A stretch of 52,852 nt of DNA from Candidatus Nanoarchaeia archaeon (GTDB lineage Archaea; Nanobdellota; Nanobdellia; UBA10117): contig JAWCLD010000001.1 of NCBI GenBank assembly GCA_038851215.1, positions 1 to 52,852 of the forward strand, given 5' to 3'. Position numbers and translations under genes: made by a program. This document shows positions 1 through 51,297 of the stretch, piece after piece. Below the pieces are notes generated by a model, which was given only the letters and a program-made list of their open reading frames with translations, did no database searches and was not told the DNA's origin. The stretch's first letter is position 1. Each line of letters starts with the position of its first letter.

Positions 1-2245
1 TTGTTAGTGTTGTTGCCGTCTTATCAGCACATATACCCCTATAACCAGAGTTTATACCAACACCGTCAACAATATGTCCCTGTCCGTCAAATATGACATC
101 ACTTGAAGTAATGTTAATGCAGCACTCTGCGTGACTATTTAAAATATCCTGAGTTAGTGCATAATAGCCTGGTGTTGTAATATTTATGCAATTTGCTACA
201 TTAACAGAACCGACAAAGCCAAGAGGTGTAAATATACTGCCAAAATTAGTTATGTTTGCATAGACATAATTTGCTTCTGTGTTGACGCCGTAAGTTCCGT
301 CTGTAAATTCGTTAGGATCTGTAAACCACCCACTATTATTATGCTTAGCTATATTTAACTTGTTTTCATCAAGTTCTCCAAGCTCGTCTTCGTTATAGCT
401 TACATTTAGATAAAGCCATGAGCTTTCAGAATTATTTGTGGCTGTATTGTTTGTTAGAATGTTGTTGGAGCTGGAATAAAAGTAAATACCCTTGCTATCA
501 CTAGAATTAATGACGTTACCAGTAAATGTGTTATACCAACCATCGCCAAGTTCGATTCCGTTGCCTATACTTTTTGCAATAGTATTATTAGTAATGTTTG
601 TGTAATTCACATCCCATAATTCCATACCTTCCCAGTCGCTATAGTTGACATAATTATTCTCTATATTACTATAAACCAAAGAATCAAGTACTATTGCACT
701 ACCCCAACCATTTTTCTTAAGGTGTATAAAATTATTAGTAACATTTATGTAAATACCGTCGTCAACACAAATTCCCCAATTGGCTGAAAGCAAAGTATTG
801 TTTGCAATCGTTATATTAGTATTACCATTATAGCCGAAATCTATAGCATATCCAGCACCAGATATATTGTTATTTATTACAATGCTATTGTTCGCTTGAT
901 ATGCACCAATGCCTCGATCGTCGTTGTTAATGAGCGTGTTGTTTATTATCGTAAGATTAACAGAAAATCCATCTGTCTCTAAACCATTGCCATTATTGTT
1001 AATGATATTGTCTGTCAGGTTGTTGTTGGAGCTAGAATTAAGATAGATGCCATCATAAAAATTAGAAGAAACAAAATTATGGCTAATCAAACTGTTATTA
1101 ACGTTTTCCAACACTATACCAGCCTCGCCATTCGAGCTTGCAGTGTTATTATAGACTGTAACATTATTACTTTGTATAATTTTCAAGCCCGTTTTTAAGC
1201 CATAAGGCACGGAATTAAATATGTTGCTCGATATTGTACAATTTGTAATTTCAAGAAATACCGCATTATAATTACTATTACTACTTATATTATTGTTAAT
1301 AAAGTCCAAATTTGTGTATCTAGCATAAGTGCCATTCAGATTACTGTATATGTGATTGTCCGATATAGTTCCATTGACTATGCCTGAGGAAGAATCAGCA
1401 TAAAGGCCTAAATCATTATTCCATATCCTATTTGAGCTTATACTATATGTCGACAGACCAATAAGATCGTTACCAAGAACTAAGCCATAAGTATTGCTTG
1501 AAAGATTGCAATTCTGCAAAGTGGCTGTTTTAACGCCAAAGCCTACTCCTGTTCCCCAGTCTGTAACTACACAATTTTTTACAGTTACGTTTACTACTGC
1601 TCCGCCACCTTCATGCACGACATTAATGCCATAACTGCCAGTGTCATCGCCATCAATCGTATGATTTTGGCAATCCAACACAACATTTGAAGCATTAATT
1701 TTCATACAAGTATCTTGATTACTGTTAGAAATGTCTGCGGTCAAATAATAAGTTCCTGCAGCACTAAGGTCAGAACAAGTACTTATGTCTGCTTGTAGCT
1801 CAAAACTTGGCTGTTCTTCTACTGCTGGCTCTGTTTTGGTAATTTTACCATAATAAATTTCATAAGTGATGCTTTGCTGTTGTTGGGTTTCTGTCTGTAT
1901 TTCAAAAGTGGGTTCAATTTGTTTGTAAATTACATTATCAAAGATCACATCGGTTTCTGTACAAAGATTATCTGAATCGTAAATCTCATTTGTAGTTTCA
2001 AATAAAATAGCTTGGCCGTTTGCTTCTATGTAAATGCCTTCCTTGCAACTCGCCGGCTTATATCGACCAAATACAATGTGTTGTATAATTTTTTCTTGCG
2101 ATGAATTTGCAGCTATTGTAATGTGGTTTTCCCACTCTTGGCCATCGGCGGAGTAGCCTGCAAGACCAGTAAAGCTTGGTTTATACGTAAAGACCAATAA
2201 TACAAGACTAAAAATTATCACAAGGGCTGTAAACAATACTATCAT
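1..2245 (-). CDS. Partial (C-terminus runs off the window) membrane-anchored surface protein with right-handed parallel beta-helix (PbH1/NosD-like) repeats
   Basis: Absent from the ORF track because no stop lies inside the window. Reading the reverse complement from ATG 2245..2243 gives MIVLFTALVIIFSLVLLVFTYKPSF (hydrophobic anchor). Asn/Ile/Gly-rich ~22-residue repeats follow (ISSNSNYNAVFLEITNCTISSN, ITIANNTL, INVTNNFI). A second module head (TTPGYYALTQDILNS..CINITSSDVIFDGQGHIVDG) echoes the first (SAAGTYYLTADISNS..CMKINASNVVLDCQNHTIDG). The frame appears open to position 1 (hand translation). Confidence 0.7.
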   Translation of the reverse strand, partial: MIVLFTALVIIFSLVLLVFTYKPSFTGLAGYSADGQEWENHITIAANSSQEKIIQHIVFGRYKPASCKEGIYIEANGQAILFETTNEIYDSDNLCTETDVIFDNVIYKQIEPTFEIQTETQQQQSITYEIYYGKITKTEPAVEEQPSFELQADISTCSDLSAAGTYYLTADISNSNQDTCMKINASNVVLDCQNHTIDGDDTGSYGINVVHEGGGAVVNVTVKNCVVTDWGTGVGFGVKTATLQNCNLSSNTYGLVLGNDLIGLSTYSISSNRIWNNDLGLYADSSSGIVNGTISDNHIYSNLNGTYARYTNLDFINNNISSNSNYNAVFLEITNCTISSNIFNSVPYGLKTGLKIIQSNNVTVYNNTASSNGEAGIVLENVNNSLISHNFVSSNFYDGIYLNSSSNNNLTDNIINNNGNGLETDGFSVNLTIINNTLINNDDRGIGAYQANNSIVINNNISGAGYAIDFGYNGNTNITIANNTLLSANWGICVDDGIYINVTNNFIHLKKNGWGSAIVLDSLVYSNIENNYVNYSDWEGMELWDVNYTNITNNTIAKSIGNGIELGDGWYNTFTGNVINSSDSKGIYFYSSSNNILTNNTATNNSESSWLYLNVSYNEDELGELDENKLNIAKHNNSGWFTDPNEFTDGTYGVNTEANYVYANITNFGSIFTPLGFVGSVNVANCINITTPGYYALTQDILNSHAECCINITSSDVIFDGQGHIVDGVGINSGYRGICADKTATTLT

Positions 2246-8004: not shown

Positions 8005-8064
8005 TACCCACCAGCACCCATAAAATTTAAAGAAGGGTAAGAATAAAGCTTTTGCGCAAGGCGC

Positions 8065-8136
8065 GCCTCTGTAGCTCAGAAGTAGAGCGTCCACCTCGTA
8101 AGTGGAAGGTCGCAGGTGCGACTCCTGCCAGGGGCA
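8065..8136 (+). tRNA. tRNA-Thr (anticodon CGU)
   Basis: Cloverleaf drawn by hand: acceptor GCCTCTG/CAGGGGC (one G-U pair), D arm GCTC-AGAAGTA-GAGC, anticodon arm TCCAC-CTCGTAA-GTGGA, variable loop AGGTC, T arm GCAGG-TGCGACT-CCTGC, discriminator A. No encoded CCA. Confidence 0.8.
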
Positions 8137-8153
8137 CTAACTTTAATTACCAT

Positions 8154-8930
8154 ATGAAACCATTTGACGTACACTGTCACTTATACGATGAAAGTTTCAA
8201 TGCAGATAGAGTTAAAGTTATAGAAAAGGCCAGAAAAGTTCTCTCTGGCATTGTTGTTGTAGGCGAAGGCCCTAAAACAAATAGGAAAGTTTTAACATTA
8301 TGTAAAAATTATTCAAAGTTCTTATTTCCAGGGCTTGCTATACATCCCGACCATGTGTGGAAACTTTCAGACAAAGAAATTACAAATGAACTAAAGTTCA
8401 TTTCAGAGCAAAAAAATCTTGTTTGTATCGGAGAATGCGGCCTTGATTACAAATGGGCACCTGGCGAAAACTCTGAAGAATCTAAAGAAAGGCAAAAAGC
8501 AGTTTTTATTAAACAGATAGAATTGGCTAGAAAGTTAGATCTACCGTTAAATGTACATTCGCGTCGCGCAACTAGTGATGTGGTTAAGATTCTTAAAGAA
8601 AACAGGGCAAAAAAGGTTATCTTGCACGGATTCGTCACCACACCAGAAGAAGCTAGGAAAGCCACACGTCTTGGTTATAAAATAACAATAGGTACAACTT
8701 TGCTCTGGAAAGACAATAATCGACATTTAATATATTACTTAGAAAACTTTCCTCTTTCAACTTTTGTTTTGGAAACGGACTCCCCCGTCCTCGCCCCTAT
8801 AAGAGGGATGAGAAATGAACCCTCAAATATTTCTCTTGTTGTAAAAGAAATTGCTAAAATAAAGAAAATTCCTGAAGACAAAATAATTGAAATCACAAAT
8901 AAAAATGTTAGAGAATTATTCAAATTATAA
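8154..8930 (+). CDS. tatD: TatD-family metal-dependent hydrolase/DNase
   Basis: Starts MKPFDVHCHL (the HxH motif). Also has GECGLDY, LNVHSR, ILHGF and LETDSP motifs. The track start at 8052 overlaps the tRNA and is rejected. Confidence 0.8.
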   Translation: MKPFDVHCHLYDESFNADRVKVIEKARKVLSGIVVVGEGPKTNRKVLTLCKNYSKFLFPGLAIHPDHVWKLSDKEITNELKFISEQKNLVCIGECGLDYKWAPGENSEESKERQKAVFIKQIELARKLDLPLNVHSRRATSDVVKILKENRAKKVILHGFVTTPEEARKATRLGYKITIGTTLLWKDNNRHLIYYLENFPLSTFVLETDSPVLAPIRGMRNEPSNISLVVKEIAKIKKIPEDKIIEITNKNVRELFKL

Positions 8931-10105: not shown

Positions 10106-10429
10106 ATGCAAAATAAGAATGAATGGCAAGCCATTGCAAAAGAAAGAATAGATATTTTGTTTAGGGAAGCAAATTTAGCAGCCAAAGAAGGGAACTTGCA
10201 AAGGGCTTCACGATATATTTTTTTAGCCAGGAAATTGGCAATGAAATATAATTTGCGATTATCAAGGGAACAAAGAAAGAAATTTTGCCACAAATGTTAC
10301 AAATACCTCATGCCTGGAAAAAACGTTTCCATTAAAATTAATCCTAAGTTACAATCGGTTGAATATCGGTGTAAGGAATGTGGGCATACTAATAGATACC
10401 CTTATATCAAGGAAAAGAAATTAAAGTAA
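10106..10429 (+). CDS. rnp4: RNase P protein component 4 (Rpp21/Rpr2)
   Basis: Has an N-terminal helical region (IAKERIDILFREANLAAKEG..ASRYIFLARKLAMKYNLRL) and a Zn ribbon (CHKC...CKEC). Confidence 0.8.
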   Translation: MQNKNEWQAIAKERIDILFREANLAAKEGNLQRASRYIFLARKLAMKYNLRLSREQRKKFCHKCYKYLMPGKNVSIKINPKLQSVEYRCKECGHTNRYPYIKEKKLK

Positions 10430-11261
10430 CCAAATCGCCATTTTCGTCAAACAAAAATGCTGTATCGCCGGCGTTGTTCCATATTGGTTCTTTAGAATTC
10501 CAATAAAGTTCCGTTTTGGTGTCTATCCCAGAGCCGGTATAAAGTATAATTTGCATATTCGGCTCTAAACTTATATTTTTGAAATAGTAGAAATGTGTTG
10601 CTTGGTCCTTAATACTCCACTTATCTATGTTAATTGTCCTAGCGTCTTCATTCTTAATTATGACAAACTCACCATTCAGATTTTCATTATCGTTGCCAGG
10701 AGCGTCATAACTAACTTCTAATTTAATGTTATAATTCGCAGTTGAGCTCCATAATCCTCTTTTGTTTTTCTTAGCCTCTTGTTCAAGGCAGCTAAACAAT
10801 GTGGAGTATTTTGTATTCGGCTCAACCGGATAAATTGTTGCAAGGCCCTGCCGCACAAGCTCCGCATTTATAAACTTGTCCTCTGTAAATGCGTATCTTA
10901 ACAATCTACCATATTGGTCTTTGTCTTCAACGTCCCTTGCCAGCATTATACCATTTTCAGACAGTTTTGTTGTTAGTTGAGCTGCTTCAGCAGACCATTT
11001 AAGCCCTTTTTCAGGCGTATTTATTCCAACAAAACGAACTTTGTCGCCATTTACTAGCTGAACTGTATCGCCATCTAAGATTTTCATTACGGTGAAAATT
11101 CTTCCCTGATTTTCTTCTATGATTTGAGGAAGCTTTGCAATCTCCTCTTCGCAATTTATTTGTGGTTGCAGAGGAATTAAGCCACCTATAATTGAGCATC
11201 CACTAACCAAAACCAGTGCAACAAACAACAATAGTAATAATGAAAATGGTCGGTTACACAT
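10407..11261 (-). CDS. Secreted lipoprotein-like thermonuclease (SNase) fused to a lamin-tail domain
   Basis: Signal/lipobox-like LLLLLFVALVLVSGC. SNase motifs DGDTVQL, RFVGINTPE, DQYGRLLRYAF and NAELVRQGLA. A C-terminal LTD-like segment GEFVIIKNEDARTINIDKWSIKD. Confidence 0.75.
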   Translation of the reverse strand: MCNRPFSLLLLLFVALVLVSGCSIIGGLIPLQPQINCEEEIAKLPQIIEENQGRIFTVMKILDGDTVQLVNGDKVRFVGINTPEKGLKWSAEAAQLTTKLSENGIMLARDVEDKDQYGRLLRYAFTEDKFINAELVRQGLATIYPVEPNTKYSTLFSCLEQEAKKNKRGLWSSTANYNIKLEVSYDAPGNDNENLNGEFVIIKNEDARTINIDKWSIKDQATHFYYFKNISLEPNMQIILYTGSGIDTKTELYWNSKEPIWNNAGDTAFLFDENGDLVTLISFP

Positions 11262-12101: not shown

Positions 12102-13849
12102 CTATCTTTTGGCTTCAATCTCTTTCTGTAAATCTTTAATGAAATCGTTAATCTTGATGCCGAATTTCACTTTTCCGCCTCTTGGCCGAACCGCAATCGT
12201 GTCAGATTTTTCTTCTTTATCTCCGGCTACAAGAATGTAAGGAACTTTTTCGATTTCTGCCTGTCTTACTTTATACTCTACAGTATTGCTGCTATAATCC
12301 GTCTCAACACGCAAACCGGCATTCCGGAGCTGCTTCTCAACCTTTTGTGCATAATTTAAGTTTCTGTCTGCAAATGTTAGCAATTTGACTTGCACTGGAG
12401 CAAGCCATGTTGGGAAAGCTCCACCATAGTTTTCTATTAAAATGCCAGTAAAGCGCTCGATCGCACCAAGTAAAGTACGATGTATCATAACAACCCTATG
12501 TAATTTATTATCTGCTCCTATATAATTCAAATCAAATTTTTCAGGAAGATTAAAGTCGAGTTGTATTGTTAAGCATTGCCATTTTCGGTTTAATGCGTCA
12601 AGTCCATGAACGTCTATTTTTGGGCCATAAAATGCTGCTTCGCCCGGCATTTTAGTATATTTTATTTTCTTTTTATCTAAAACTGATGTTAGCGCCGTTT
12701 CGGCTCTTTTCCATATTTCCTCAGAACCAAGATACTTTTCTTTCTCCGGGCCTCGCAAAGATAGCTCGATTATATAATTTTTAAAGCCAAATTGCTCTAG
12801 CATCCAGAGTCCGAATTCTAATACAGATTTTATTTCACCTTCAAGCTGATCAAGTGAGCAAAAAATGTGCGCATCATCTTGCGTTATGCTTCGCACTCGC
12901 ACTAAGCCGTGAAGCGCACCGCCAAACTCCGGTCTGTAAACTGTTGCAAGTTCACAATATCTAATTGGAAGCTCTCTGTAACTTCGTGGTTTAAACTTGT
13001 AAATTTGGATGTGAAAAGGGCAACTCATTGGTTTAAGCAAGTAATCTATTTCATCGACTTTCATTGGAGGATACATATTTGCTTTATAAAACACCCAATG
13101 CCCAGACGTTTTCCATAAGTCAATTTTACCAATATGTGGCGTAAACACATATTGGTAGCCGCGCTTGTCATGTTCTGTTTTCCAAAAGTCTTCTATTACT
13201 CTTCTTATGATAGCTCCCTTGGATGCCAAAGTGGTAATCCGGGCCCAACGGTTTCTGAGTAAATATTAAACAAATCTAGTTGCTGGCCAAGTTTAATGTG
13301 ATCTCTTTTTTCTGCTTCTTCTCGCCTCTTCAAAAAGGCGTCTAATTCTTTTTGTGTTGGGAAGCTAATTCCATATATGCGTTGGAGCACTGGTCTTTTT
13401 GGATTGCCACGCCAATAAGCTGCTGCAGTGTTTAGAAGCTTAAAAGCACCGATTTGACCAGTTGATTTTATTAAGGGACCGGCGCACAAATCTATAAATT
13501 TGCCATGTTGGTAAAAAGATATTTCTTTATCCGGAATCTCTTCCAAAAGTTCAAGTTTATACCTTTCATTTTTAAGTATCTTTTCGGCTTCTTTTCTTGG
13601 CAGCTTGAGATGTTTAAAAGCTAAGTCTGCTTTAATTATTTTAGCCATTTCTTTTTCTATTTTTGCTAAATCCTCTGCAGTAAAAGGGTCGCGCTTATCG
13701 AAATCATAGTAAAAGCCTTCGTCTATAGCTGGTCCTATGCCTAATTTTACATCAGGCCAGAGACGCTTAACAGCATCCGCTAATATGTGGGATGTTGAGT
13801 GCCAGAATGCCTTTTTATCCTTCTCCGTTACAAAGGGAGTCTTTACCAT
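12102..13849 (-). pseudogene. thrS: Threonyl-tRNA synthetase interrupted by a 1-nt frameshift (two ORFs, 13205..13849 and 12102..13229)
   Basis: The upstream ORF has the SAD/editing HxxxH (WHSTSHILADAV), DLCAGP and RDHIKLGQQLDLF, and ends ..GPGLPLWHPRELS*. The downstream ORF continues (M)ASKGAIIRRVIEDFW.. through the class II catalytic core and anticodon-binding domain. Adding one A at CCAAGGG (13216..13222 on the plus strand) would give the contiguous ..PLWHPKGAIIRR... Confidence 0.8.
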
Positions 13850-24119: not shown

Positions 24120-24455
24120 TTAGCCCGCAGATTTTCTCCAAGTATATTTGCATTTGGTGCATCTGAAAAATTGCGTATCTACGGTGTCCTCGTCGCCAAT
24201 AGCGCCTGTTGTGATTTGCGTCCACCAGTATGCTTTTTTATTACCGCATTTAGGGCATTCAGCATCTGCAATTGGGAAAGTACCTTCAATCTCTTTTGGA
24301 GCTCTTTTGAAAGTCCTCTCCTTTACGGGGCGAGGTAATTTTTCCTTAATTAGTATGTCTGATTTTTCGGCCTTGATGCGTGAGCCACATCTAGGGCAAA
24401 TAGCTATCTTTTTACTAGGCAACATTAACGTCTTGCACTTGTGACAAAATTCCAT
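24120..24455 (-). CDS. Divergent transcription factor S / RpoM paralog
   Basis: N-terminal Zn ribbon CHKC..CPRC. The C-terminal TFIIS-type ribbon CPKCG..FFRCTKCKYTW has an altered, longer acidic loop QITTGAIGDEDTVDTQ. I prefer the start at MEFCHKC. Confidence 0.7.
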   Translation of the reverse strand: MEFCHKCKTLMLPSKKIAICPRCGSRIKAEKSDILIKEKLPRPVKERTFKRAPKEIEGTFPIADAECPKCGNKKAYWWTQITTGAIGDEDTVDTQFFRCTKCKYTWRKSAG

Positions 24456-24469
24456 TTTAATCAGCGCTC

Positions 24470-24772
24470 CTAGTACTTCCTCCATCTATAACCGCATTTC
24501 TTGCATATAAAGAATTGGGTTTCAGGCTCGTCAGCAGCTCTAGTTTGTTGTGTGTAAAAATAAGCTTCTTGGTGCTTGCATTTTGGACATTCTACAGCTA
24601 TAGTAGGCATAGTTTCTGGAATTTCTTCACCTTCTTTAACTGCCGTAACAGCTTTTCGTTTGACAGTTTCCTTTATTTCGGCAGTTTCCGTCTCCTTGTA
24701 GCCACAGCTGCTGCATAAGAGACCCTCTTTGGCAGGTACTAGTAAGCCTTTGCATTTGGGGCAAAATTTCAT
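24470..24772 (-). CDS. tfs: Transcription factor S (TFS, TFIIS C-terminal homolog)
   Basis: MKFCPKCKGLL..CSSCG, and a C-terminal CPKC..QTRAADEPETQFFICKKCGYRW with the canonical acidic hairpin. Confidence 0.85.
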   Translation of the reverse strand: MKFCPKCKGLLVPAKEGLLCSSCGYKETETAEIKETVKRKAVTAVKEGEEIPETMPTIAVECPKCKHQEAYFYTQQTRAADEPETQFFICKKCGYRWRKY

Positions 24773-24862
24773 GATACGAAAGGTAAAGTTTTCATATTTA
24801 AGTCTAACGGAAGAAGGCACAAATACTGTGTTTTTTGCGCTAAGTTCGCACAGAAAATTTGC

Positions 24863-26173: not shown

Positions 26174-26446
26174 TTATTTTAATTTCTTTACTTCTTTGTC
26201 CAATTTATCTAGCTCGTTAGACAAAGAGTCTATTGCTAAATTCCAAACTTTTTTTGCATCTTTGTTCTTTGTTCTCAAAATAAACACTGGTTTGGATATT
26301 TCGGGATGGTCTAGTCTAAAGCTTGCTAGTTCGACTCCAGACTGTTTCCATAGCGCTTCTTTGATCATGTTTAGGAGACCGTGGTCAATTTCTGAAAACT
26401 TCAACTCTAAAAAGTCCTTTTCCTCTTTCAAAATCTCAATTTCCAT
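26174..26446 (-). CDS. rpo11: DNA-directed RNA polymerase subunit Rpo11 (RpoL)
   Basis: 90 aa; LELKFSEIDHGLLNMIKEAL..VELASFRLDHP....FILRT matches the RpoL/RPB11 pattern. Confidence 0.7.
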   Translation of the reverse strand: MEIEILKEEKDFLELKFSEIDHGLLNMIKEALWKQSGVELASFRLDHPEISKPVFILRTKNKDAKKVWNLAIDSLSNELDKLDKEVKKLK

Positions 26447-26465: not shown

Positions 26466-27170
26466 TCATTTAAAAGGCTTTGGGATGTACAAGCACTCTA
26501 AATCTAGTGCATTAACAACCGGCTTTTCAAAGTAATCATCAACAAGCCGTGGGCAAGCAGTATTAACCCATGCTTCGATGTGGCTGAAATCGAGCAACAT
26601 TGTATTTGTAATTATATCGCAAATGAAGAGGTAAGCTTTTTTTCCCAATTTCTCAAGCTTTTCTTTTAGCTTTACTGCAGACATTTGCAATTCATATTGG
26701 CCTGGCTTTGTTGACACGAGAATTCCAACAACTTTTGCGCTTTTGAAGCGCTCTAATTCTAGAATGTGCTTTTTTAAAAGATTCTTTCTTTTCCCCTCAT
26801 CCAAAAGCGTCAATTGTCCTGTAAAGGGGTCAAATACTAGTATCGGCTTAGAGCTTTTCATAAGCAGACCGAAAGGGTGAAATTCTCCAGTGCCTATGTA
26901 TAAAAAAGCTTCAATCTTTCTTTCTATAGCTAATGCAGAAGAGACATCGCAGCCAAGCACCTGTCCTTCCAGTAGAGCTGAGCCAGTTGGTTTACCCAAA
27001 AAAACAGTAAAGCTTTTGTCAGATAAAAACTTTTTAATTTTTGGCAGTTGACGGGCAAACTGTACTGTTGTAAGAAGACCTATTTTCTTATAGGAAATAT
27101 CTGGTAAGACTTTTTCCAAGCCCTCTATAACACTTTTGTTAGCCTCGACTTCAATGAATATAGTTTTCAT
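26466..27170 (-). CDS. dph2: Diphthamide synthase Dph2, C-terminal piece (domains 2 and 3)
   Basis: MKTIFIEVEANKSVIEGL..IGLLTTVQF..EGQVLGCD..FLYIGTGEFHP..VNTACPRLVDD. An ATG at 27170 is preceded by the TATA-like AAAGTTTTTAAATTG (27194..27208). The track start is a TTG at 27188. Confidence 0.8.
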   Translation of the reverse strand: MKTIFIEVEANKSVIEGLEKVLPDISYKKIGLLTTVQFARQLPKIKKFLSDKSFTVFLGKPTGSALLEGQVLGCDVSSALAIERKIEAFLYIGTGEFHPFGLLMKSSKPILVFDPFTGQLTLLDEGKRKNLLKKHILELERFKSAKVVGILVSTKPGQYELQMSAVKLKEKLEKLGKKAYLFICDIITNTMLLDFSHIEAWVNTACPRLVDDYFEKPVVNALDLECLYIPKPFK

Positions 27171-27228
27171 GCTTAATTGTTTACCCAAATAAACAATTTA
27201 AAAACTTTGGTTTGCGCCTAGATATAAA

Positions 27229-30200
27229 TTACGGCAAAATATCCTTAAGTTTGTTTGGGTCCCAGCCAGCTTCTAGTAATGAGAGCTTAATTTGCTGCGG
27301 AGTGTGGCCTTCATCAAGCTCCTCTTTGATATAATCTTTTAGCTTGTCAATGTCATCTGTAGGTTTAAGGACGCCAGCTTTTCTTGCATGGCTTTTTACA
27401 TGCTTTTCTGTCAATTTGCCTAGAATATCGTCAATGATATTTGAAGGCCAATTTGCACTCAACAATGCGGTTCGCACTTGCGCCGCAGTGAAGCCCATTT
27501 CAAGACATTTTCTAGCATATCTTTCAGCCTGTTCGATTTCTTCTGTTGGGACACTAACTTTGTACTGCTCTGCAAGTGCATCTAATTTTACTTGTGTAGC
27601 ATGCGCTGCACTGAGTGCGTTGTTTATATCAGCCGCAGACCAACCTCCTGCAGCTAATTGCTGGGAAATTTCTGAAGGCGAATATCCTTGACTAAGCATT
27701 GTGTCAACTGCAGGTCCAAGCTCACCTTCTCCAGGTGTTTCGACGCCATGTGCTACTGTCAAAGCAGCCAGACCGTGTCTGCGTTTATACATATAATACA
27801 ATCCACCTGCTATAATAGCAAGTATCACTGCTACCACAGTTAGCCACACATTTGTGCCTATCTTTTTCTTACAATCGTATGGACTTATTGCAGGTGTCTC
27901 GCCAGCAGCACTGTCGCAAACGCCATCACCGATAAGATATGGGCACTTGCAGTTGGGTGTACAAAGACCTGGACAAGCTACATCTTTAGAGCCGTCGCAA
28001 TCCTCGCCAGCTTCAACAACATTGTTGCCGCAAACTCCCTCTTGAGAATCTGGCTTGCAATCCACTGGAGAATTGGCGTAATTTTCGCCGTACTTTACAT
28101 CGCAAATGCCATCCCCTACTTTATATTTAGGTAATATGTCTTGATAGAGCGTCTTGTTGCAGCCTTCTGTTATATCATCAATCTTACCGTTGCAGTTGTT
28201 ATCAACATAGTCACCACAAATCTCCGTGGCACCAGGATTGATATCCTTATCCAAATCGTCACAATCCTTTGCGCCGCAGTCTCCACCTTCTACAGCATAG
28301 CCGTCAGCATCGATATCTGTGCATTCTATTACCTTATAAACTAAACTGAGCTTTTCGCTTTTAGTCGGGTCTTTTATATTTGTGGCTGTAAAATTGATAG
28401 TATAATTGCCAATCTCTACATCCTTCGCCGATATTACTTCGAGCAAAATCTTATCTTTGTCGCCAACAGCTATTGTGCTATTTTTTGGCGAAATTTCGCA
28501 CTCCCAGTCGCTTGGGCATTTTACAGAATAATCGAACCTACCAACACAATCATCTTGATTTTCAACTGTAATGTTATAAGAAACTTCTGTGCCAGCAGTT
28601 GCGCTGATATGTTTTGTTTTTGTACTAAGGCTTGGTGCTTCTCTGCTGCAAATCTTTATAGTATAATTGAACGTCGTGCTTGCGTTATATTCTGGATTTT
28701 CAAAATCGTAAGCTAAGGCGCTGAAACTATAGTCGTTAAGGCTTGCAGTAGTTGGTGAAGTTATTGCAAAAGGTACTGAGGAAGTTTTGCCATTTTTTAT
28801 ATCAAGAGTCGTACTGTTTGGCTGACATTTCCAGCCACTCTTACAACTTATATTCAAGCCAAACGTCTTGTCAGCGCCTCTGTAATTAGTAATTTTTGCG
28901 GTATAAGTTAAAGTATCGCCTTTGTCGCCACTTTGGCTTAACGGCTCTATGGCAAGGACAACAGGAAATACTTCTGCCTCGAAACTTATATTAGAGCTTT
29001 CGCTACACTCTGGCCAGCCATTTTCACAAAGCTTAGTGAGATCAAATACGCCTTCACAAACAGCAGTGTGCTGTCCTTCCGAAACGGCTGGGCATTTAAA
29101 TTTCGCACCATTATTCGTCCACTCCACCAAAGAGCAGCGCGTTGTATTAGTATCAATGTATGCACTCAAAGCCTCGCACTTTAACGCGTTATTACAGGCC
29201 TGTGCAAGACATGTTAAATTAAATTCAGTATTTGGGCGTACTAAAGATGGTTCTAAGATAGGTGTGCTTAACCTACATTCATGACATGATAAAATTACAA
29301 ATACGGTAGAGTTACCTTCAACATAATTTGATGCGCTTGCCGTTATTTCAGCTTCTCCTACTTGAGTGGGGGAGCTGAAGGTCACAGAGCATCCACCATT
29401 TGAAGTAACACATTTATTTGGACTTACAGAACCAAAGCTTGGCGAAAAGCTAATTATAATACCGTTGGCCCTATCCAATGTATTGGCAGTGATTGTTGAG
29501 GTCTCTTTTATAGTTATAATTTTGGGATTTGCGGAGACATAAAGTATCTTTTGCTGCGAGGAAACCGTTATGATTGTTTCTTGTCCTATCCCTTCATTAT
29601 TAGCTGCATCGTAACATTTGAACTGGGCTTTATGAGTACCTACACTTTGTGGCGTAAATTCAGTTTGCCAGGTATTTGTATTGCCTATTTGTTTAGCGGA
29701 TGCTTGCAAGACGGAATCGTAATAAAAGTCGCACTTGATTACTTTGACATTATCTATTGCGTTAGCGGAGAAAGTAGTAAGTTGGCCTACAAATGCTGTT
29801 GTAGGACTTACTGCAGATACTTTCGGCTTTTCCGTATCCGTGATTGAGTTAAATGTTGCGGTTACAGCTTTAGTTGCATCCATAATTATATTGCAAGTTC
29901 CAGTACCACTGCAGCCTGCGCCAGACCAGCCTGCAAATACGCTTCCAGAAGCAGCACTTGCTGTCAAAGTAACTGATGTTCCGCTAGCATAAGTTTCAGA
30001 ACAATCTGCGCCGCAATTTATACCTGCGCCCGTAACTGTTCCAGAGCCGGTTCCAGCTTTTGATACTGTCAGAGTATATTGTGTTGGTAAACTCCAGGTA
30101 CAGCCATCTCCTGCTGATTGATGTTGCTTGCATTCAGCTTCACCAAGAGTAGGACAAGCGTGTGGCGTTCCGGTGCAAATGTAATCGTTTATGAATTTGT

Positions 30201-30627
30201 CATAGATCCACCGGCAATTGTGAGAAATACAATTTGATTGTGTGAAATATTGGTTGCAGGGTTTGTGATTGCCTATACATTCTCCACTTTCTCCCATAGG
30301 TTGTGCGGGCGCGGCGAATTTGGCTAGCTGTGTGCCTGCAAAAAGCATAAGCCCCCCAAGTATTAAAATAAAGACTACGAAGAAAAGCGTCAAATTTTTG
30401 CGGAATTCTTTTGGTGTTTTGGCTGAAAACTTGTTTTTGAAGAACAAGTAAAGAAACACGCTTGCTACAATTATAACAAAGGCAGTAAATGATATTAAAA
30501 CTAGATTTGGGTTACTTTCTGGCGAGACTGCTGCTCCTGTTATTTGGTTAAAGCTATGCCAGCCTAGTATTACTATACCTACAAGCATTAATAATATTAT
30601 TATGACGGCAGTGGCCGAGCCTCGCAT
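27229..30627 (-). CDS. 1132-aa multi-domain membrane-spanning surface protein
   Basis: Three N-terminal TM segments and a Cys-rich module. InlB-B-repeat-like domain (YTLTVSKAGTGSGTVTG..INCG.DCSETY..GTSVTLTA..GWSG..C, aa 183-260). Ig-like domains and two paralogous CARDB-like domains with C.SGW.C / CPSDWEC. MopE-like metal-binding motif (DADGY..DCDD.D..INPGATEICGD.VDNNCNGKIDD). Myxococcus-type Cys-rich repeat (CGNNVVEAGEDCDG). TM at aa 927-946, then a cytoplasmic tail with three copies of a ~35-aa repeat. Confidence 0.8.
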   Translation of the reverse strand: MRGSATAVIIILLMLVGIVILGWHSFNQITGAAVSPESNPNLVLISFTAFVIIVASVFLYLFFKNKFSAKTPKEFRKNLTLFFVVFILILGGLMLFAGTQLAKFAAPAQPMGESGECIGNHKPCNQYFTQSNCISHNCRWIYDKFINDYICTGTPHACPTLGEAECKQHQSAGDGCTWSLPTQYTLTVSKAGTGSGTVTGAGINCGADCSETYASGTSVTLTASAASGSVFAGWSGAGCSGTGTCNIIMDATKAVTATFNSITDTEKPKVSAVSPTTAFVGQLTTFSANAIDNVKVIKCDFYYDSVLQASAKQIGNTNTWQTEFTPQSVGTHKAQFKCYDAANNEGIGQETIITVSSQQKILYVSANPKIITIKETSTITANTLDRANGIIISFSPSFGSVSPNKCVTSNGGCSVTFSSPTQVGEAEITASASNYVEGNSTVFVILSCHECRLSTPILEPSLVRPNTEFNLTCLAQACNNALKCEALSAYIDTNTTRCSLVEWTNNGAKFKCPAVSEGQHTAVCEGVFDLTKLCENGWPECSESSNISFEAEVFPVVLAIEPLSQSGDKGDTLTYTAKITNYRGADKTFGLNISCKSGWKCQPNSTTLDIKNGKTSSVPFAITSPTTASLNDYSFSALAYDFENPEYNASTTFNYTIKICSREAPSLSTKTKHISATAGTEVSYNITVENQDDCVGRFDYSVKCPSDWECEISPKNSTIAVGDKDKILLEVISAKDVEIGNYTINFTATNIKDPTKSEKLSLVYKVIECTDIDADGYAVEGGDCGAKDCDDLDKDINPGATEICGDYVDNNCNGKIDDITEGCNKTLYQDILPKYKVGDGICDVKYGENYANSPVDCKPDSQEGVCGNNVVEAGEDCDGSKDVACPGLCTPNCKCPYLIGDGVCDSAAGETPAISPYDCKKKIGTNVWLTVVAVILAIIAGGLYYMYKRRHGLAALTVAHGVETPGEGELGPAVDTMLSQGYSPSEISQQLAAGGWSAADINNALSAAHATQVKLDALAEQYKVSVPTEEIEQAERYARKCLEMGFTAAQVRTALLSANWPSNIIDDILGKLTEKHVKSHARKAGVLKPTDDIDKLKDYIKEELDEGHTPQQIKLSLLEAGWDPNKLKDILP

Positions 30628-30706
30628 AGCCTTATTTAGAAAGGGACGTGAATATAAAAACTTTGCCTGAATTATTTCTTAACTTCGTCGAATGTGAAAT
30701 GAGGTT

Positions 30707-31264
30707 CTATCGCTGCTTTACAGCTTTATAAATATCGCTACCAAGTGCTATTCCGCCGATTGTAAGCAACACTTCTAAACCGTCGATTAGCAATTGCATA
30801 TATGGTTGTAGGGATTGGGCAAAATCATAATACGCTAAAAATGACGACGCGCCAATGATGCCAGCTAATCCTAAACTGTCAAGAATTATTCTCGAAACGT
30901 TCGAAACAGAACTTCTTATTGAGGTACTATAAAGTTCTAGCGCTTTCTCGTATTGCGCGGCAGGTAGACTATGGCTTAAAATCTCTGCAAGATCTGTGGG
31001 CTGCTGCACATTTTGGATTTCAAAAATATGATATTTTTTATCAGGCAGCAAGTGTGTCAATACGGGGCGCTCACCAGGCAACTGGTTATTGAGGTCATTC
31101 AAAACGCGCTTAACTTCATTACCCACAGCTGCTGGTACATAGATGAAAAGAGTTTGTGGAAACTCGTCTGTCTGCGTAACAAAGCATATCGGAATTGGAC
31201 CCTTTCCTTCGTACTTTTTAATCTGCCTCAAGGCTGTCTTGTTTGGCTTTGGTATGTTTAGCAT
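30707..31264 (-). CDS. Hypothetical protein with C-terminal membrane segments
   Basis: 185-aa ORF, 6 nt downstream of the 119-aa ORF. Hydrophobic C-terminal third. No recognised motif. Confidence 0.5.
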   Translation of the reverse strand: MLNIPKPNKTALRQIKKYEGKGPIPICFVTQTDEFPQTLFIYVPAAVGNEVKRVLNDLNNQLPGERPVLTHLLPDKKYHIFEIQNVQQPTDLAEILSHSLPAAQYEKALELYSTSIRSSVSNVSRIILDSLGLAGIIGASSFLAYYDFAQSLQPYMQLLIDGLEVLLTIGGIALGSDIYKAVKQR

Positions 31265-31270
31265 AGCTCT

Positions 31271-31630
31271 TTACTCACTTTTTAGGCAAGGTATTCGCAA
31301 TTTTGGTTTCGAGGTTTCTTGTGATGGTGAGGTTTGCGCATAAGATTGTGGCGGTTGAGCCAATGGCACTTGCTCTGGCATTTCTTTTGATGTTTGAACT
31401 TTAGCTTCTAAGGTAAGTTGGCTAGATTGACTTTGTTGTACTGGCACGCTCTCTTCCTTTGATTTGTACCGTTTATACAACTCCTGCGCGCCATAAAAGA
31501 TTGGAAGTGTTAAAAGACCGCCTGTAAGAGCGTAAGGTATCAGTTGGGGAGAACCGATACATGCTGCGACAATTCCGCCCAACCCACTTAGTATGGCTGC
31601 TATTTCTGCCTTACTCATAACCAAAAACAA
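31271..31630 (-). CDS. Hypothetical two-TM protein with Gln/Ser/Pro-rich tail
   Basis: 119-aa ORF with two N-terminal hydrophobic segments and a low-complexity C-terminus (QQSQSSQ..QPPQSYAQTSPSQ). Confidence 0.45.
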   Translation of the reverse strand: MFLVMSKAEIAAILSGLGGIVAACIGSPQLIPYALTGGLLTLPIFYGAQELYKRYKSKEESVPVQQSQSSQLTLEAKVQTSKEMPEQVPLAQPPQSYAQTSPSQETSKPKLRIPCLKSE

Positions 31631-31693
31631 TACGTTAAGAATTTAAGATTACCGTTTCTGCAACAAGCATTATTAGTTAGTGAAACAATAATT

Positions 31694-31714
31694 AAAACAA
31701 AAAAAGAGAAAAAG
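31694..31714 (-). terminator. Oligo-T tract (archaeal-type terminator) after the 95-aa membrane gene
   Basis: The minus strand reads CCTTTTTCTCTTTTTTTGTTTT just downstream of the stop at 31727. Confidence 0.35.
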
Positions 31715-31726
31715 GATTTTCAGCAA

Positions 31727-32014
31727 TTACTTTAGTTTGCTGAAAATCTGTATGGCCATTGCTATAGCACCTATCAACACTAGGATAAACGCAATTACTA
31801 AGAAAATTATGTTTATCCACCCAATCGCTGTTGCAATCGTTGGAATTGCAGTTGCAATGGGCTCTAGTGTTGAAGCAAGGATAAGGAACACTGCGCCCGA
31901 GGCAATGTAGCCTAACTCCTTCTTCAGTGCTTCTACATAGCCGCTGTACTTTAACAGCGCTAGGCCTACCAATATTCCTATTCCAGTTCCAAGTATACCT
32001 TCCCAAAAGGCCAT
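31727..32014 (-). CDS. 95-aa three-TM membrane protein (paralog B)
   Basis: MAFWEGILGTGIGILVGLALLKYSGY.. is similar to the upstream 94-aa ORF. AAGGAGGA lies about 10 nt upstream of the ATG. Confidence 0.55.
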   Translation of the reverse strand: MAFWEGILGTGIGILVGLALLKYSGYVEALKKELGYIASGAVFLILASTLEPIATAIPTIATAIGWINIIFLVIAFILVLIGAIAMAIQIFSKLK

Positions 32015-32107
32015 TTTGTCATGTCCTCCTTTGATTTTTCAAAGGATAATGTTCCATTTCTCAACTCAATATATAAGGCTGTTTCATTTCTAACCAGTAA
32101 TTACGTT

Positions 32108-32392
32108 TTAGCCCTTCATTAAGTCAGCTGCTGCCCACAGACTACCTATTACTATTAATATAAAGGCTATTAGCTCCCAAGCAAATGTTACCCAGGCAGC
32201 TGCTGTGGATGTAGCTATCTTAGCTGCAAATGCTCCTGCGTTCCAGGCCAAGTCTATTATGTAAAACATTAGACCTGCCGCTATGAAACCAGCTGGCTTC
32301 TGCACTAGGTGCAATATGCCTGCGTACCTGAGTAGCACAAGGGCCGCAGCCAATCCCAAGACTAAACCAAATATTGTTCCTTCGATTGCCAT
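32108..32392 (-). CDS. 94-aa three-TM membrane protein (paralog A)
   Basis: MAIEGTIFGLVLGLAAALVLLRYAGI.. with the ATG at 32392 preferred over the track TTG at 32401. TATA-like TTATATAATATG upstream. Confidence 0.55.
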   Translation of the reverse strand: MAIEGTIFGLVLGLAAALVLLRYAGILHLVQKPAGFIAAGLMFYIIDLAWNAGAFAAKIATSTAAAWVTFAWELIAFILIVIGSLWAAADLMKG

Positions 32393-32487
32393 TTTGCTCA
32401 ACTTTTATAGTTAAATCATATTATATAAGAGTGTGTCACTCAGGTCTTGTAGAAAACATCGAAAATAATACTTAATAAAATTCTTAA

Positions 32488-32805
32488 TTATGTATCAAGG
32501 TTTGGTTTTGTTACAACTTTCCTAAATGCTGTGTGTCCAAAATTAATTAGCAAATCGAAACCAATGTTCTTAAGTTGTAATGGCAAGTCGCAAGCTCCAA
32601 AATTGCTGCCTGCCCAGAGCCATAGTTGAGCCTTTAAGTTGCTATCTTTTAGCTTTTTACTTACTTCATCGTAGATTTTAGTAGCATGTTGTTTAAGCCC
32701 ATCTGGCAATTGTAGACAAACCTTTGGGTTCTCCTTTTTTATTTTGGCTATTTCTGCTACAACTTTATTGATATTCAAGTTGTAATCCATAATTTGTTTA
32801 CTCAA
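32488..32805 (-). CDS. dph2: Diphthamide synthase Dph2, N-terminal piece (domain 1)
   Basis: 105 aa; VCLQLPDGLKQHA..NFGACDLP..GFDLLINFGHTAF matches Dph2 domain 1 (compare P. horikoshii VLIQSPEGLR..NYGACDPA..CDALIHLGHSYM). Confidence 0.75.
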   Translation of the reverse strand: MSKQIMDYNLNINKVVAEIAKIKKENPKVCLQLPDGLKQHATKIYDEVSKKLKDSNLKAQLWLWAGSNFGACDLPLQLKNIGFDLLINFGHTAFRKVVTKPNLDT

Positions 32806-49550: not shown

Positions 49551-50519
49551 TTAAAGCTTTTCTATGATGCAAGCTTTTATTGGCTTATCAAATCTTAACC
49601 TTTTGAAACTTGGCGCTCTGAGGTGTAAGCGATTTGTATAATTGAGGAATTGCACTTCAGCAACGTATTTGGGCCTTACCCAAATCACTTCTTTAGTCAG
49701 CTTTGGCACTTCTGAAAAAGGGGGGTGAGATGTTTTGATTTTCTTAAGTGCTTTTCCAAGTTCTTCTACTTGCTTCGAATCAAAACCTGTTCCGACTTGT
49801 CCAACATGAAGCAATTTGCCTCGGTAATATTGCCCAAGTACAAGCGAGGCAAAAGGCGAGCGTATGCCAACTGTATAGCCGCAAATTATACAGTCTGCAA
49901 CTTTTATGTTCTTTATCTTTAGCCAATGTCTGCTACGAATGCCAACGAGATATATCGAATTTCGATCTTTAGCCATTACACCTTCCATATTAAATTTTTT
50001 AACATCGCGCCAAAGTCTAAGTCCTTGGCCTTCTAGATAGAAAACTTTCCTGATGTGTATAAGATTATCTGGTATGACTTTTTCTAACACATGCTTCCTA
50101 TCAATTAATTTTTGTTTGGTAAGGTTATTATTATCATGAGCTAAAATATCAAAAACGTAAAGGGTTGCGGGCCATCGTGTTGAAAGCAACTTAATTTTGA
50201 ATGCATTTTCGGTTTGGTCTCTACTCTGCAACAAGCTAAAATTAGGCAAACCATTTTTATCTAACACTATTACTTCACCATCGAGAATTACATCGCCAAA
50301 AAGTTTTTTGGCTTCTTCAACAATTTCAGGAAATCGATGCTGAAACCAATTACCTCTGCGATTTAACATTCTGATGTTATTATTGCTTTTGTACAAAATA
50401 CAACGCGTACCATCGAGCTTAGGCTCGTAAATAAAGTTTTTTAGTTTCAAGTCAGTTTTGCGTCCTATTACGGCAAGCATTGGAAAAATCTTTTTCTTGT
50501 ATAACTCCAAATCACTCAT
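49551..50519 (-). CDS. Short ATP-dependent DNA ligase (LigD ligase-domain-like: adenylation + OB only)
   Basis: Motif I EPKLDGTR, ..LDGEVIV.., ..FDIL.., ..EGVMAK.., ..WLKIK. About 322 aa, with no N-terminal DNA-binding domain. The preferred start MSDLELYKK overlaps the Ku stop by 8 nt. Confidence 0.8.
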   Translation of the reverse strand: MSDLELYKKKIFPMLAVIGRKTDLKLKNFIYEPKLDGTRCILYKSNNNIRMLNRRGNWFQHRFPEIVEEAKKLFGDVILDGEVIVLDKNGLPNFSLLQSRDQTENAFKIKLLSTRWPATLYVFDILAHDNNNLTKQKLIDRKHVLEKVIPDNLIHIRKVFYLEGQGLRLWRDVKKFNMEGVMAKDRNSIYLVGIRSRHWLKIKNIKVADCIICGYTVGIRSPFASLVLGQYYRGKLLHVGQVGTGFDSKQVEELGKALKKIKTSHPPFSEVPKLTKEVIWVRPKYVAEVQFLNYTNRLHLRAPSFKRLRFDKPIKACIIEKL

Positions 50520-51297
50520 TTTTCGTTTTTGCTTTGGCTTTCGCCATCTTGAGGCTTGCCTCAAGCGCCACCATCAAGTCTTTAGTTGGTTTTGCAGTCG
50601 GAATTTCAACTTTTTTACCTTCAAGTTTAGCTTCTATAAATGACCGTAGAATTTCTTTGTACTTGTTCTTAAACTCGGAAAGATTAAAATGTTTTGTTAA
50701 CTTTGCAATAAGTTCTGCTGCAAGCTTTAACTCTTGTTTACTTGCTTTTGGTAAGGCGGTAAGCTCTGCAAAGAATTCTGGTTTTCTTATCTCGTCTGAA
50801 TAAAACAAAGTTGTAAGGAGCAGAGTATTTTTGTAGCCTCGCAGCACAACAAGATAATCTCTATCACGCATTACGACTTTACCAACTGCAACAATATTAG
50901 CTAATTGTAGCGCTTCCTTCAACAAGGAAAAAGCTTTTTCTGCGCCCTTTTCAGGAACTATAAAGTAATTCTTATCGTAAAATAATGGGTCTATTTCGGC
51001 CGAATCGACAAACTCTATAATTTCAATATTTTTAGATTGTGGTATTGGCAGCCGATGTAATTCTTCTCTATTAAATGTTACATATTTGCCTTTGACATAT
51101 TCAAAACCATGAAGCACCGAATCCCAAGATACTTCTGCTTTGCATTTTGCGCACCATCGCTTATATTGCAATCTCGATTTGCACTTTGGGCATAAAAGGT
51201 GGAAAGAGACTAGTTTTGGTTCTGTTGCGCTATAGAGTTTTATAGGTAGTACAATTAGACCAAATGCTATATTTCCACGCCAAATTGCTTTTGGCAT
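50512..51297 (-). CDS. ku: Ku-family DNA end-binding protein (prokaryotic type)
   Basis: MPKAIWRGNIAFGLIVLPIKLYSATEPK.VSFHLLC..C..RLQYKRWC.KC..EV......GFEY.KGKYV.F..EEL. Confidence 0.85.
   Translation of the reverse strand: MPKAIWRGNIAFGLIVLPIKLYSATEPKLVSFHLLCPKCKSRLQYKRWCAKCKAEVSWDSVLHGFEYVKGKYVTFNREELHRLPIPQSKNIEIIEFVDSAEIDPLFYDKNYFIVPEKGAEKAFSLLKEALQLANIVAVGKVVMRDRDYLVVLRGYKNTLLLTTLFYSDEIRKPEFFAELTALPKASKQELKLAAELIAKLTKHFNLSEFKNKYKEILRSFIEAKLEGKKVEIPTAKPTKDLMVALEASLKMAKAKAKTKNE

Follow-up and report, generated by a model that had tools for sequence, protein, structure and literature searches.

The division of the diphthamide synthesis gene dph2 into two genes has already been published. 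A split Dph1/2, broken at the site described below, was reported for DPANN archaea by Narrowe (2018; PMC6143161) and Dombrowski (2019; PMC6349945), and the split lineages given there are Woese-, Pace-, Parv- and Altiarchaeota. Nanoarchaeota Nst1 also makes Dph2 from two genes, Nst 222 and Nst 440, and a table in the same paper lists split genes of Nanoarchaeum equitans, including those for reverse gyrase, AlaRS and RNAP B (Podar et al. 2013, PMC3655853). N. equitans itself has no Dph2. The split genes of N. equitans are broken at domain boundaries, and the pieces are presumed to reassemble.

Here, a 52,852-nucleotide stretch of archaeal DNA (the window) was analysed, in which the two pieces of dph2 are separated by 5.3 kb. 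The original prediction was that an accessory cassette of surface-protein genes had been inserted into an intact dph2, which then survived as two genes. The results point instead, with a probability of roughly 0.85, to a DPANN-typical two-gene Dph2 that arose by an old fission in the linker between domains, the gap having been filled later by a block of genes that is neither mobile nor the cause of the split.

The first piece, dph2-N (32488..32805, minus strand), encodes a stand-alone Dph2 domain 1 with the first cluster cysteine (GSNFGACD), and was recognised by PF01866, TIGR03682 and TIGR00322. The ORF opens with a TTG at position 32805, and the true start is probably the ATG at 32790, giving the 100-aa product annotated by NCBI as P0121. 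The piece covered positions 1-60 of the 302 positions of PF01866 (E 4e-9; profile search), positions 2-67 of the 308 of TIGR03682 and positions 1-86 of TIGR00322, and it aligned with residues 6-86 of PDB 6q2d and with chain residues 47-121 of Pyrococcus horikoshii Dph2 (3lzc). As predicted, this minus-strand ORF holds domain 1 alone. All 62 homologues found were likewise stand-alone proteins, of 75-107 aa, and came from DPANN archaea. Of the 150 best representatives (at 50% identity) from an exhaustive profile search, 99 were no longer than 135 aa, and the top 55 were all of 158 aa or less.

The second piece, dph2-C (26466..27170, minus strand), encodes domains 2-3 with the second and third cluster cysteines (GQVLGCD and NTACPR), and was recognised by PF01866 and TIGR03682. 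The product of 234 aa is identical to P0001. It covered positions 62-290 of PF01866 (E 3e-49) and 72-295 of TIGR03682, and aligned with residues 92-309 of PDB 6bxm and 122-347 of 3lzc. The predicted assignment of this ORF to domains 2-3 was upheld. More than 100 of the closest homologues were stand-alone pieces from DPANN sources, and 117 of the 120 best matches were stand-alone C pieces of 214-249 aa.

When placed on P. horikoshii Dph2 (3lzc), the two pieces were contiguous with zero overlap. Together they covered PF01866 and TIGR03682 (arCOG04112) end to end, and the profile check thus upheld the view that the gene was split at the domain 1/2 linker without loss. The TIGR03682 scores of dph2-N (51.0 bits) and dph2-C (185.2 bits) were each below the equivalog cut-off of 202.8, and their summed score of 236 exceeded it. 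All three cluster cysteines, one per domain as in Dph2, were kept; in alignments of 61 stand-alone N pieces and 120 C pieces, the motifs GSNFGACD (N), GQxLGC and NTACPR (C) were invariant or at least 90% conserved. No further Dph2-like ORF was found in the window, and EF-2, dph5 and dph6 were absent among the window ORFs with a length of at least about 170 aa.

Dph2 is a radical-SAM 2-(3-amino-3-carboxypropyl)histidine synthase, and its two-gene form seems to be typical of a large DPANN clade. The products of dph2-N and dph2-C would be expected to assemble non-covalently, probably as (N.C)2, and in this way to rebuild the three-cysteine [4Fe-4S] site. As domain 1 is a separate polypeptide, this site would be made from two chains. 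The rebuilt Dph2 would then move the ACP group of SAM onto the target histidine of EF-2. An AF2 model of the N and C pieces, joined into one single sequence, was poor, with a pLDDT of 42, and gave no information on assembly.

Misassembly, or decay of dph2 into a pseudogene interrupted by unrelated DNA, might also produce two pieces, and at least one apparent frameshift is present in another essential gene of the window, that for ThrRS. However, the order N-p97-p95-surface protein-C (genes described below) recurs across many contigs and projects that are independent of each other. Both halves begin and end with clean start and stop codons, each is preceded by a promoter-like element of its own, and all catalytic motifs are kept across more than 60 N and more than 100 C homologues. 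Artefact or decay was accordingly given almost no weight, and the pieces are regarded, as originally proposed, as a maintained split gene. A chimeric assembly in particular is very unlikely, because several metagenome projects, independent of one another, yielded contigs with the same gene order. The ThrRS gene (12102..13849) was itself considered as a second domain-boundary split, and this was ruled out, because the reading frame is shifted by one base within WHPKG, a conserved motif.

Five genes lie between the halves, all on the minus strand. They had been described as membrane or surface protein genes, and transmembrane segments were indeed predicted in all five ORFs. The gene next to dph2-N, p97 (32108..32401), encodes a small membrane protein with transmembrane segments and is a diverged paralogue of p95, with about 35-40% identity and reciprocal matches; it directly follows dph2-N throughout the clade labelled 'p95x2'. 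The p95 gene (31727..32014) encodes a 95-aa membrane protein with three transmembrane helices, and is the most conserved gene of the neighbourhood, above Rpo11. Its identity was 79-90% in four related loci (L001, L002, L008 and L013) and 60-69% in two others (L016 and L022) where p95 is the sole gene between the halves. A homologue search returned 68 clusters, none of which had a Pfam match, and every source name that gave a taxon was DPANN. The AF2 model of p95 (pLDDT 89) consisted of three helices, and a Foldseek comparison with the PDB gave no significant match (best E 2.5). As a membrane protein that is highly conserved and specific to DPANN, the p95 family may merit study in its own right.

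The next two genes, p119 (31271..31630; an N-terminal transmembrane segment and a Q/S/P-rich tail) and p185 (30707..31264; two C-terminal transmembrane segments), were the only window-specific ones among the five, as neither was matched by tblastn in 160 related loci. None of p95, p97, p119 and p185 matched Pfam or NCBIfam. The fifth gene (27229..30627) encodes a Cys-rich surface protein of 1132 aa (48 Cys), identified by Pfam matches and transmembrane segments. It has three transmembrane segments at the N-terminus, an ectodomain with Ig-like, InlB B-repeat, NEW3 and MopE-like domains, and a transmembrane segment at 927-945; the cytoplasmic tail that follows contains three helical repeats. The ectodomain was variable among relatives, and the C-terminal part (from aa 556 or 800 to 1132) was conserved directly upstream of dph2-C.

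The arrangement of the two halves was surveyed in the 160 related loci. In some loci the halves were adjacent and overlapped via ATGA or TAATG, with an SD-like GGAGG inside the 3' end of the N piece. In others the gap was occupied by small, unrelated genes, such as HicB/HicA-like pairs, by p95 as the one small membrane-protein gene in the gap (N-p95-C), or by p97, p95 and the surface protein, as in the window. The halves were inverted in some loci and unlinked (>10 kb apart) in others, and in L013 the N-p97-p95-surface block was inverted as a unit. Among the 160 loci, fused dph2 genes were confined to Euryarchaeota, Thermoplasmata and Aenigmatarchaeota-type sequences. Whether the halves are adjacent, spaced or unlinked, the N pieces of the window and its relatives end a few residues past the GH motif and the C pieces begin M-K/E-x-[LI]-F-[LI]-[ED], so the two ORFs of the window are broken as in the other split lineages. 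P0001 and P0121 are both annotated 'Candidatus Nanoarchaeia archaeon', and the loci nearest to the window came from Woesearchaeota or Nanoarchaeia MAGs. Downstream of dph2-C, the conserved neighbour is rpo11 (RNA polymerase subunit L/Rpb11-like; 26174..26446, minus strand; PF13656), and the order C-rpo11-endoDU-signal peptidase-TFS-TFS was syntenic in relatives.

These arrangements bear directly on the proposal that a 5.3-kb surface-protein cassette entered an intact dph2 fairly recently at the domain boundary, the gene surviving as two. Five membrane or surface genes occupy the gap between halves that are colinear on one strand, p185 and p119 are lineage-specific, and the GC content of the interval is slightly above that of the flanks (0.41 vs 0.37), all of which would fit such an event. 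However, many DPANN lineages share the identical break point with halves that overlap, are unlinked or have no cassette between them. The search for relatives with an intact dph2 found none among the close relatives, and no presence/absence polymorphism with an intact empty site was seen. Nor do the 5.3 kb behave as one accessory cassette, since the synteny of p97, p95 and the C-terminal portion of the surface protein extends throughout the clade.

Signatures of a mobile element were also absent. There were no integrase or transposase Pfam matches in the interval, the repeats at its borders were only short, chance-level matches, and the only tRNA in the window is at 8065, away from the borders. 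One inverted repeat (I8/I9) corresponds to an AT-rich promoter motif common to dph2-C and the divergent dph2-N/DUF357 intergenic region. The GC3 of the interval (0.33-0.43) was not atypical when compared with the flanks (0.32-0.39). As GC3 equals that of the flanks, the rise in GC reflects amino-acid composition, and it was ruled out as a sign of horizontal origin. Recent insertion of a cassette is thus largely refuted, and was considered highly unlikely.

In a neighbour-joining tree of the C pieces, all split forms made up one clade, the single-p95 and double-p95 clades were sisters, and the arrangement of the window, which falls within the double-p95 clade, was derived; the tree is a rough one (about 225 aa, without support values), and the polarity of the arrangements rests on it. 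The position of p95 might indicate that dph2 was first split by the insertion of this gene in a common ancestor, the adjacent, overlapping and unlinked forms having arisen by later loss or relocation of p95. In keeping with this, p95 lies directly between the halves in both sister clades, is the sole gene in the gap in L016, L022, L106, L127 and L150, and is nearly always directly downstream of dph2-N. Yet the halves are adjacent or overlap, with no p95, in Huberarchaeum (L024) and in a large separate clade. No p95 was found in the unlinked loci, those labelled Altiarchaeota included, except for L023, and in other lineages the same site is occupied by unrelated inserts. A precise deletion that restored the ATGA overlap would also be less parsimonious. 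An origin of the split by p95 insertion was thus judged unlikely.

An old fission followed by later filling of the gap is the preferred reading. The fission would have occurred at the domain 1/domain 2 linker, giving dph2-N (~90 aa) and dph2-C (~225 aa), and the resulting two-gene clade would include Woese-, Pace- and Nanoarchaeia, Altiarchaeota and others. The space between the halves would then have become ordinary intergenic DNA, filled differently by different lineages. In the clade of the window, p95 may have come first, followed by its duplicate p97 and then by the large, fast-evolving surface protein; the orphan membrane ORFs p119 and p185 would be the last step, taken in this genome only.

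The prediction that dph2-C has its own TATA-like element was confirmed by a BRE/TATA-like motif, AAAGTTTTTAAAT (27196..27208, minus strand), 26 nt upstream of the dph2-C ATG, which is a candidate promoter for dph2-C alone. It is near-identical to AAAGTTTTTATAT (30652..30664, minus strand; D13), 25 nt upstream of the surface-protein ATG. With at most one mismatch, AAAGTTTTTAAAT was found 7 times in the window against 2.2 expected. A TATA-like element is also present about 30 nt upstream of p97, and an archaeal promoter element of its own seems to precede every gene, dph2-C included. These archaeal motifs were read from the sequence, as a sigma-70 scan is not meaningful for an archaeon; the sigma-70 and terminator scan gave background levels (22 promoter-like matches vs 16.7 expected, and 6 terminator-like matches vs 6.9).

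A further reading is functional coupling, in which dph2-N, p97 and p95, perhaps together with the surface protein, would be regulated as one unit, for instance as a membrane-associated step or a partner of the split enzyme. The persistence of the genes between the halves would then be accounted for. The adjacency of N and p95 is kept at 40-50% Dph2 identity, p95 is exceptionally conserved, and the block was inverted together in L013. N and p95 are tightly linked even in divergent genomes, which could reflect functional coupling rather than mere synteny. However, the rpo11, endoDU, signal peptidase and TFS neighbourhood is equally syntenic, so that conserved order is not specific to the p95, p97 and surface genes. 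Many split lineages have no p95 near either half, p95 in L023 sits without dph2-N, and each gene has its own TATA-like element. No membrane role is known in diphthamide synthesis, which also counts against coupling. A co-regulated unit of this kind was considered quite improbable. Even when a tie of p95 to the split enzyme (by co-expression, membrane tethering or assembly) is taken together with p95 insertion as the original fission in a Woese/Pace ancestor, the combined chance is low.

The main value of these observations is practical, for annotation and completeness estimates. Archaeal completeness sets count dph2 as a single-copy marker, and the split gene confuses both, as Narrowe et al. 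had already pointed out (PMC6143161). The locus also shows how a fission becomes permanent, the gap behaving as normal intergenic space that collects unrelated genes. A three-cysteine [4Fe-4S] site made from two chains would be a natural test of Dph2 domain modularity; the idea is not new, as it follows directly from the published split.

Compared with intact archaeal Dph2 (3LZC/3LZD; 6BXM; 6Q2D), the split form has the same three domains and the same three Cys motifs, but the intact enzyme is a single-chain homodimer, whereas domain 1 is a separate polypeptide in the window. As in N. equitans, fission has occurred in DPANN archaea and the pieces are encoded apart, the N. equitans case being that of a genome-reduced member; the proteins affected differ. 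Nst1 has two Dph2 genes in a DPANN archaeon, as in the window, and its halves carry distant gene numbers and therefore appear unlinked (PMC3655853). The closest counterpart is the DPANN split Dph1/2, which likewise has separate N- and C-terminal genes and differs in nothing essential (PMC6143161, PMC6349945). The source names that give a taxon for the window pieces and their nearest relatives all fall within the split groups named there. Gene neighbourhoods are not described in the available parts of the two papers, and the detail added here is the series of arrangements and the nested p95, p97 and surface-protein genes.

The two open reading frames of the original prediction were both present on the minus strand. 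The first, dph2-N (32488..32805), encodes Dph2 domain 1 and matched positions 1-60 of the 302 of PF01866 (Diphthamide_syn); translation more likely begins at the ATG at 32790, which yields the 100-aa protein annotated by NCBI (P0121). The second, dph2-C (26466..27170), encodes domains 2-3 in 234 aa identical to P0001 and matched PF01866 positions 62-290. Coverage of TIGR03682 (NCBIfam, arCOG04112 Dph2, 308 positions) was likewise non-overlapping, with positions 2-67 in the N piece (51.0 bits) and 72-295 in the C piece (185.2 bits); each piece alone fell below the equivalog cut-off of 202.8 bits and the sum of the two lay above it. In alignments to solved Dph2 structures, the N and C pieces corresponded to chain residues 47-121 and 122-347 of 3lzc, and to residues 6-86 and 92-316 of 6q2d. 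As predicted, the break lies in the linker between domains 1 and 2, with nothing missing relative to these structures. When stand-alone pieces were aligned, the cluster-cysteine motifs GSNFGACD (N piece), GQxLGC and NTACPR (both C piece) were either unvarying or conserved at 90% or more. A six-frame HMM scan of the window detected no further Dph2-like ORF.

Among the 120 best homologues of the C piece, 117 were 214-249 aa long, and all taxon-bearing source names were Nanoarchaeia, Woesearchaeota, Parvarchaeota, Nanoarchaeota or 'DPANN group'. All 62 N-piece homologues were 75-107 aa long. The N-piece alignment profile, run exhaustively against 1.84 billion cluster representatives, gave 1373 matches; the top 55 were all at most 158 aa, and 99 of the best 150 were at most 135 aa. 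Both pieces are complete, strongly constrained at the catalytic motifs and conserved as stand-alone genes across hundreds of genomes. We infer that domain 1, supplied by chain N, docks onto domains 2-3 of chain C and rebuilds the three-cysteine [4Fe-4S] radical-SAM site; the N+C unit would probably dimerise as intact Dph2 does, and the reassembled enzyme would modify EF-2. No EF-2, dph5 or dph6 was found among the window ORFs of about 170 aa or longer. A TATA-like element, AAAGTTTTTAAAT, precedes the dph2-C ATG by 26 nt and is a candidate promoter, in line with the original prediction that the C piece is a maintained gene. The ATG of the surface-protein gene between the halves has a similar element, AAAGTTTTTATAT, 25 nt upstream, and others precede dph2-N and the small membrane-protein genes p97 and p95. 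These elements would fit independent archaeal transcripts with short leaders or none.

Eighty genome loci were retrieved by C-piece alignment and 80 metagenome loci by N-piece alignment, and N, C and p95 were located in these 160 loci by local HMMs. Dph2 was a single fused ORF in Methanococcoides, in Aenigmatarchaeota-type loci (L039, L060, L080) and in MAGs labelled Thermoplasmata, Methanomassiliicoccales/-coccaceae, Halobacteriales, Methanobacteriota or Euryarchaeota. Where the split halves were adjacent, they overlapped by ATGA (L122, L124, L125, L128, L130) or TAATG (L133, L155), abutted with an ambiguous start codon (L154, L158, L159) or had overlapping reading frames (L024, Huberarchaeum). 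An SD-like GGAGG or GAGGGG occurred within the 3' end of the N piece in L133, L154 and L159, and in none of the ATGA-overlap loci. A gap of 0.5-2 kb held unrelated genes, listed by ORF, in L136, L140, L147, L151 and L152 (cytoplasmic proteins of 226-260 aa in the last four), only a 283-aa opposite-strand ORF in L120, and no ORF of at least 50 aa in L123. Pairs resembling HicB/HicA toxin-antitoxin systems, so labelled from sequence appearance, sit exactly between dph2-N and dph2-C in L136 (10292..10803) and L151 (1739..2187), and L117 has a similar remnant (313..570).

A single small membrane gene, p95, separated the halves in L016, L022, L106, L108, L110, L113, L121, L127, L141 and L150. The window shares the order N-p97-p95-C, with 3-8 kb including a large surface protein before C, with L001, L002, L008, L084, L085, L088, L089, L092, L096, L099-L104 and L107. 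The N block was inverted relative to C in L013 (N, p97 and p95 with the surface gene); in L007 the inversion involves the N piece alone, and p95 was not detected. For 51 loci, including all those labelled Altiarchaeota, no partner was present in the flanking sequence available, in many cases 10 kb to either side. Several relatives also carry 0.5-2.1 kb of lineage-specific DNA between dph2-N and p97 (L001, 4505..6620; L099, L100 and L107, about 10273..11135; L093, 7465..8670), so the interval is plastic at more than one position.

The window's 5.3 kb interval had been proposed to be a surface-protein cassette whose insertion split dph2. The maintained split was borne out, but the cassette as its cause was not, because the break point is identical across all split forms and the interval bears no signs of mobility: no integrase, tRNA or meaningful flanking repeat was found there. 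Its GC3 (0.33-0.43) matches that of the flanks (0.32-0.39), so its slightly higher GC reflects amino-acid composition. The order PEP synthase-p109-TYW2-like-DUF357, then dph2-N-p97-p95-surface protein-dph2-C-rpo11-endoDU-signal peptidase-TFS-TFS-p120, is maintained at 40-60% Dph2 identity. In the surface protein (27229..30627, minus strand), the C-terminal transmembrane segment and the cytoplasmic tail with its repeats are conserved, and the Cys-rich ectodomain is variable. None of the 160 loci had a match to p119 (31271..31630, minus strand) or p185 (30707..31264, minus strand). The interval is no mobile cassette, and the greater part of it is non-accessory. The surface-protein tail (27229..27800, minus strand; residues about 945-1132) contains three repeats like G[YFH][ST]xxQ[IV]xxxLxxxGWxxxxIxxxL, with a weak UBA-like match. 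The tandem TFS/RpoM-like zinc-ribbon proteins, read as such by eye, are slightly overlapping paralogues of 116 and 121 aa (24120..24820, minus strand; about 38-44% mutual identity) and are kept in L001, L002, L004, L007 and L013.

The best conserved protein of the neighbourhood was p95 (31727..32014, minus strand), a DPANN-only protein of 95 aa with three transmembrane helices, of which p97 (32108..32401, minus strand) is a diverged paralogue. The identity of p95 was 79-90%, versus 40-59% for Dph2-C and 43-79% for Rpo11, and it exceeded both Rpo11 and Dph2 in the same genome pairs; where Dph2-C identity was 39%, that of p95 was 60-69%. The AF2 model (pLDDT 89) has helices at 6-24, 31-56 and 58-93; the third helix and the stretch VIAFILVLIGAIAMAIQIFSKLK are nearly invariant. 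No match was found in Pfam, NCBIfam or PDB folds. The persistent placement of p95 after dph2-N across relatives might indicate functional coupling to split Dph2, but we consider this improbable, as the whole region is syntenic and many split lineages have no p95 near either half.

In a rough NJ tree of the C piece, the fused forms rooted outside and all split forms made up one clade; within it the single-p95 and double-p95 clades were sisters, with the window in the latter. The simplest history would be a single old fission, after which the gap was filled lineage by lineage. In the window's lineage, p95 would have come first, followed by its duplicate p97, the surface protein, and then p119 and p185.

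Elsewhere in the window, the threonyl-tRNA synthetase gene (12102..13849, minus strand) appears as two overlapping ORFs (junction 13205..13229). A domain-boundary split like that of dph2 was ruled out, as a one-base frameshift falls within GPGLPLWHP-KGA, a conserved motif in which ccaaggg seems to lack one A; either the sequencing is in error there or the frameshift is real. At 49551..51297 on the minus strand, the gene for a 261-aa Ku-domain protein immediately precedes that for a 337-aa ATP-dependent DNA ligase; in this small DPANN genome the pair may be a two-gene NHEJ module. The window's only tRNA, tRNA-Thr CGT (8065..8137, plus strand), overlaps the mechanical 5' end of a TatD-like ORF (8052..8930); the Pfam match of this ORF begins at residue 38, so TatD translation probably starts past the tRNA. 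A 284-aa fusion of staphylococcal-nuclease and lamin-tail domains (10407..11261, minus strand) is possibly a nuclease that is secreted or displayed at the surface.

Split dph2 is already known. Podar et al. (2013; PMC3655853) list it for Nanoarchaeota Nst1, Narrowe et al. (2018; PMC6143161) describe the Dph1/2 NTD and CTD as two genes in several DPANN genomes and caution against Dph1/2 as a marker, and Dombrowski et al. (2019; PMC6349945) name Parv-, Pace-, Woese- and Altiarchaeota as having the split. To these reports the present analysis adds the p95 family and a comparative series in which the gap between dph2-N and dph2-C gathers different genes in different lineages.
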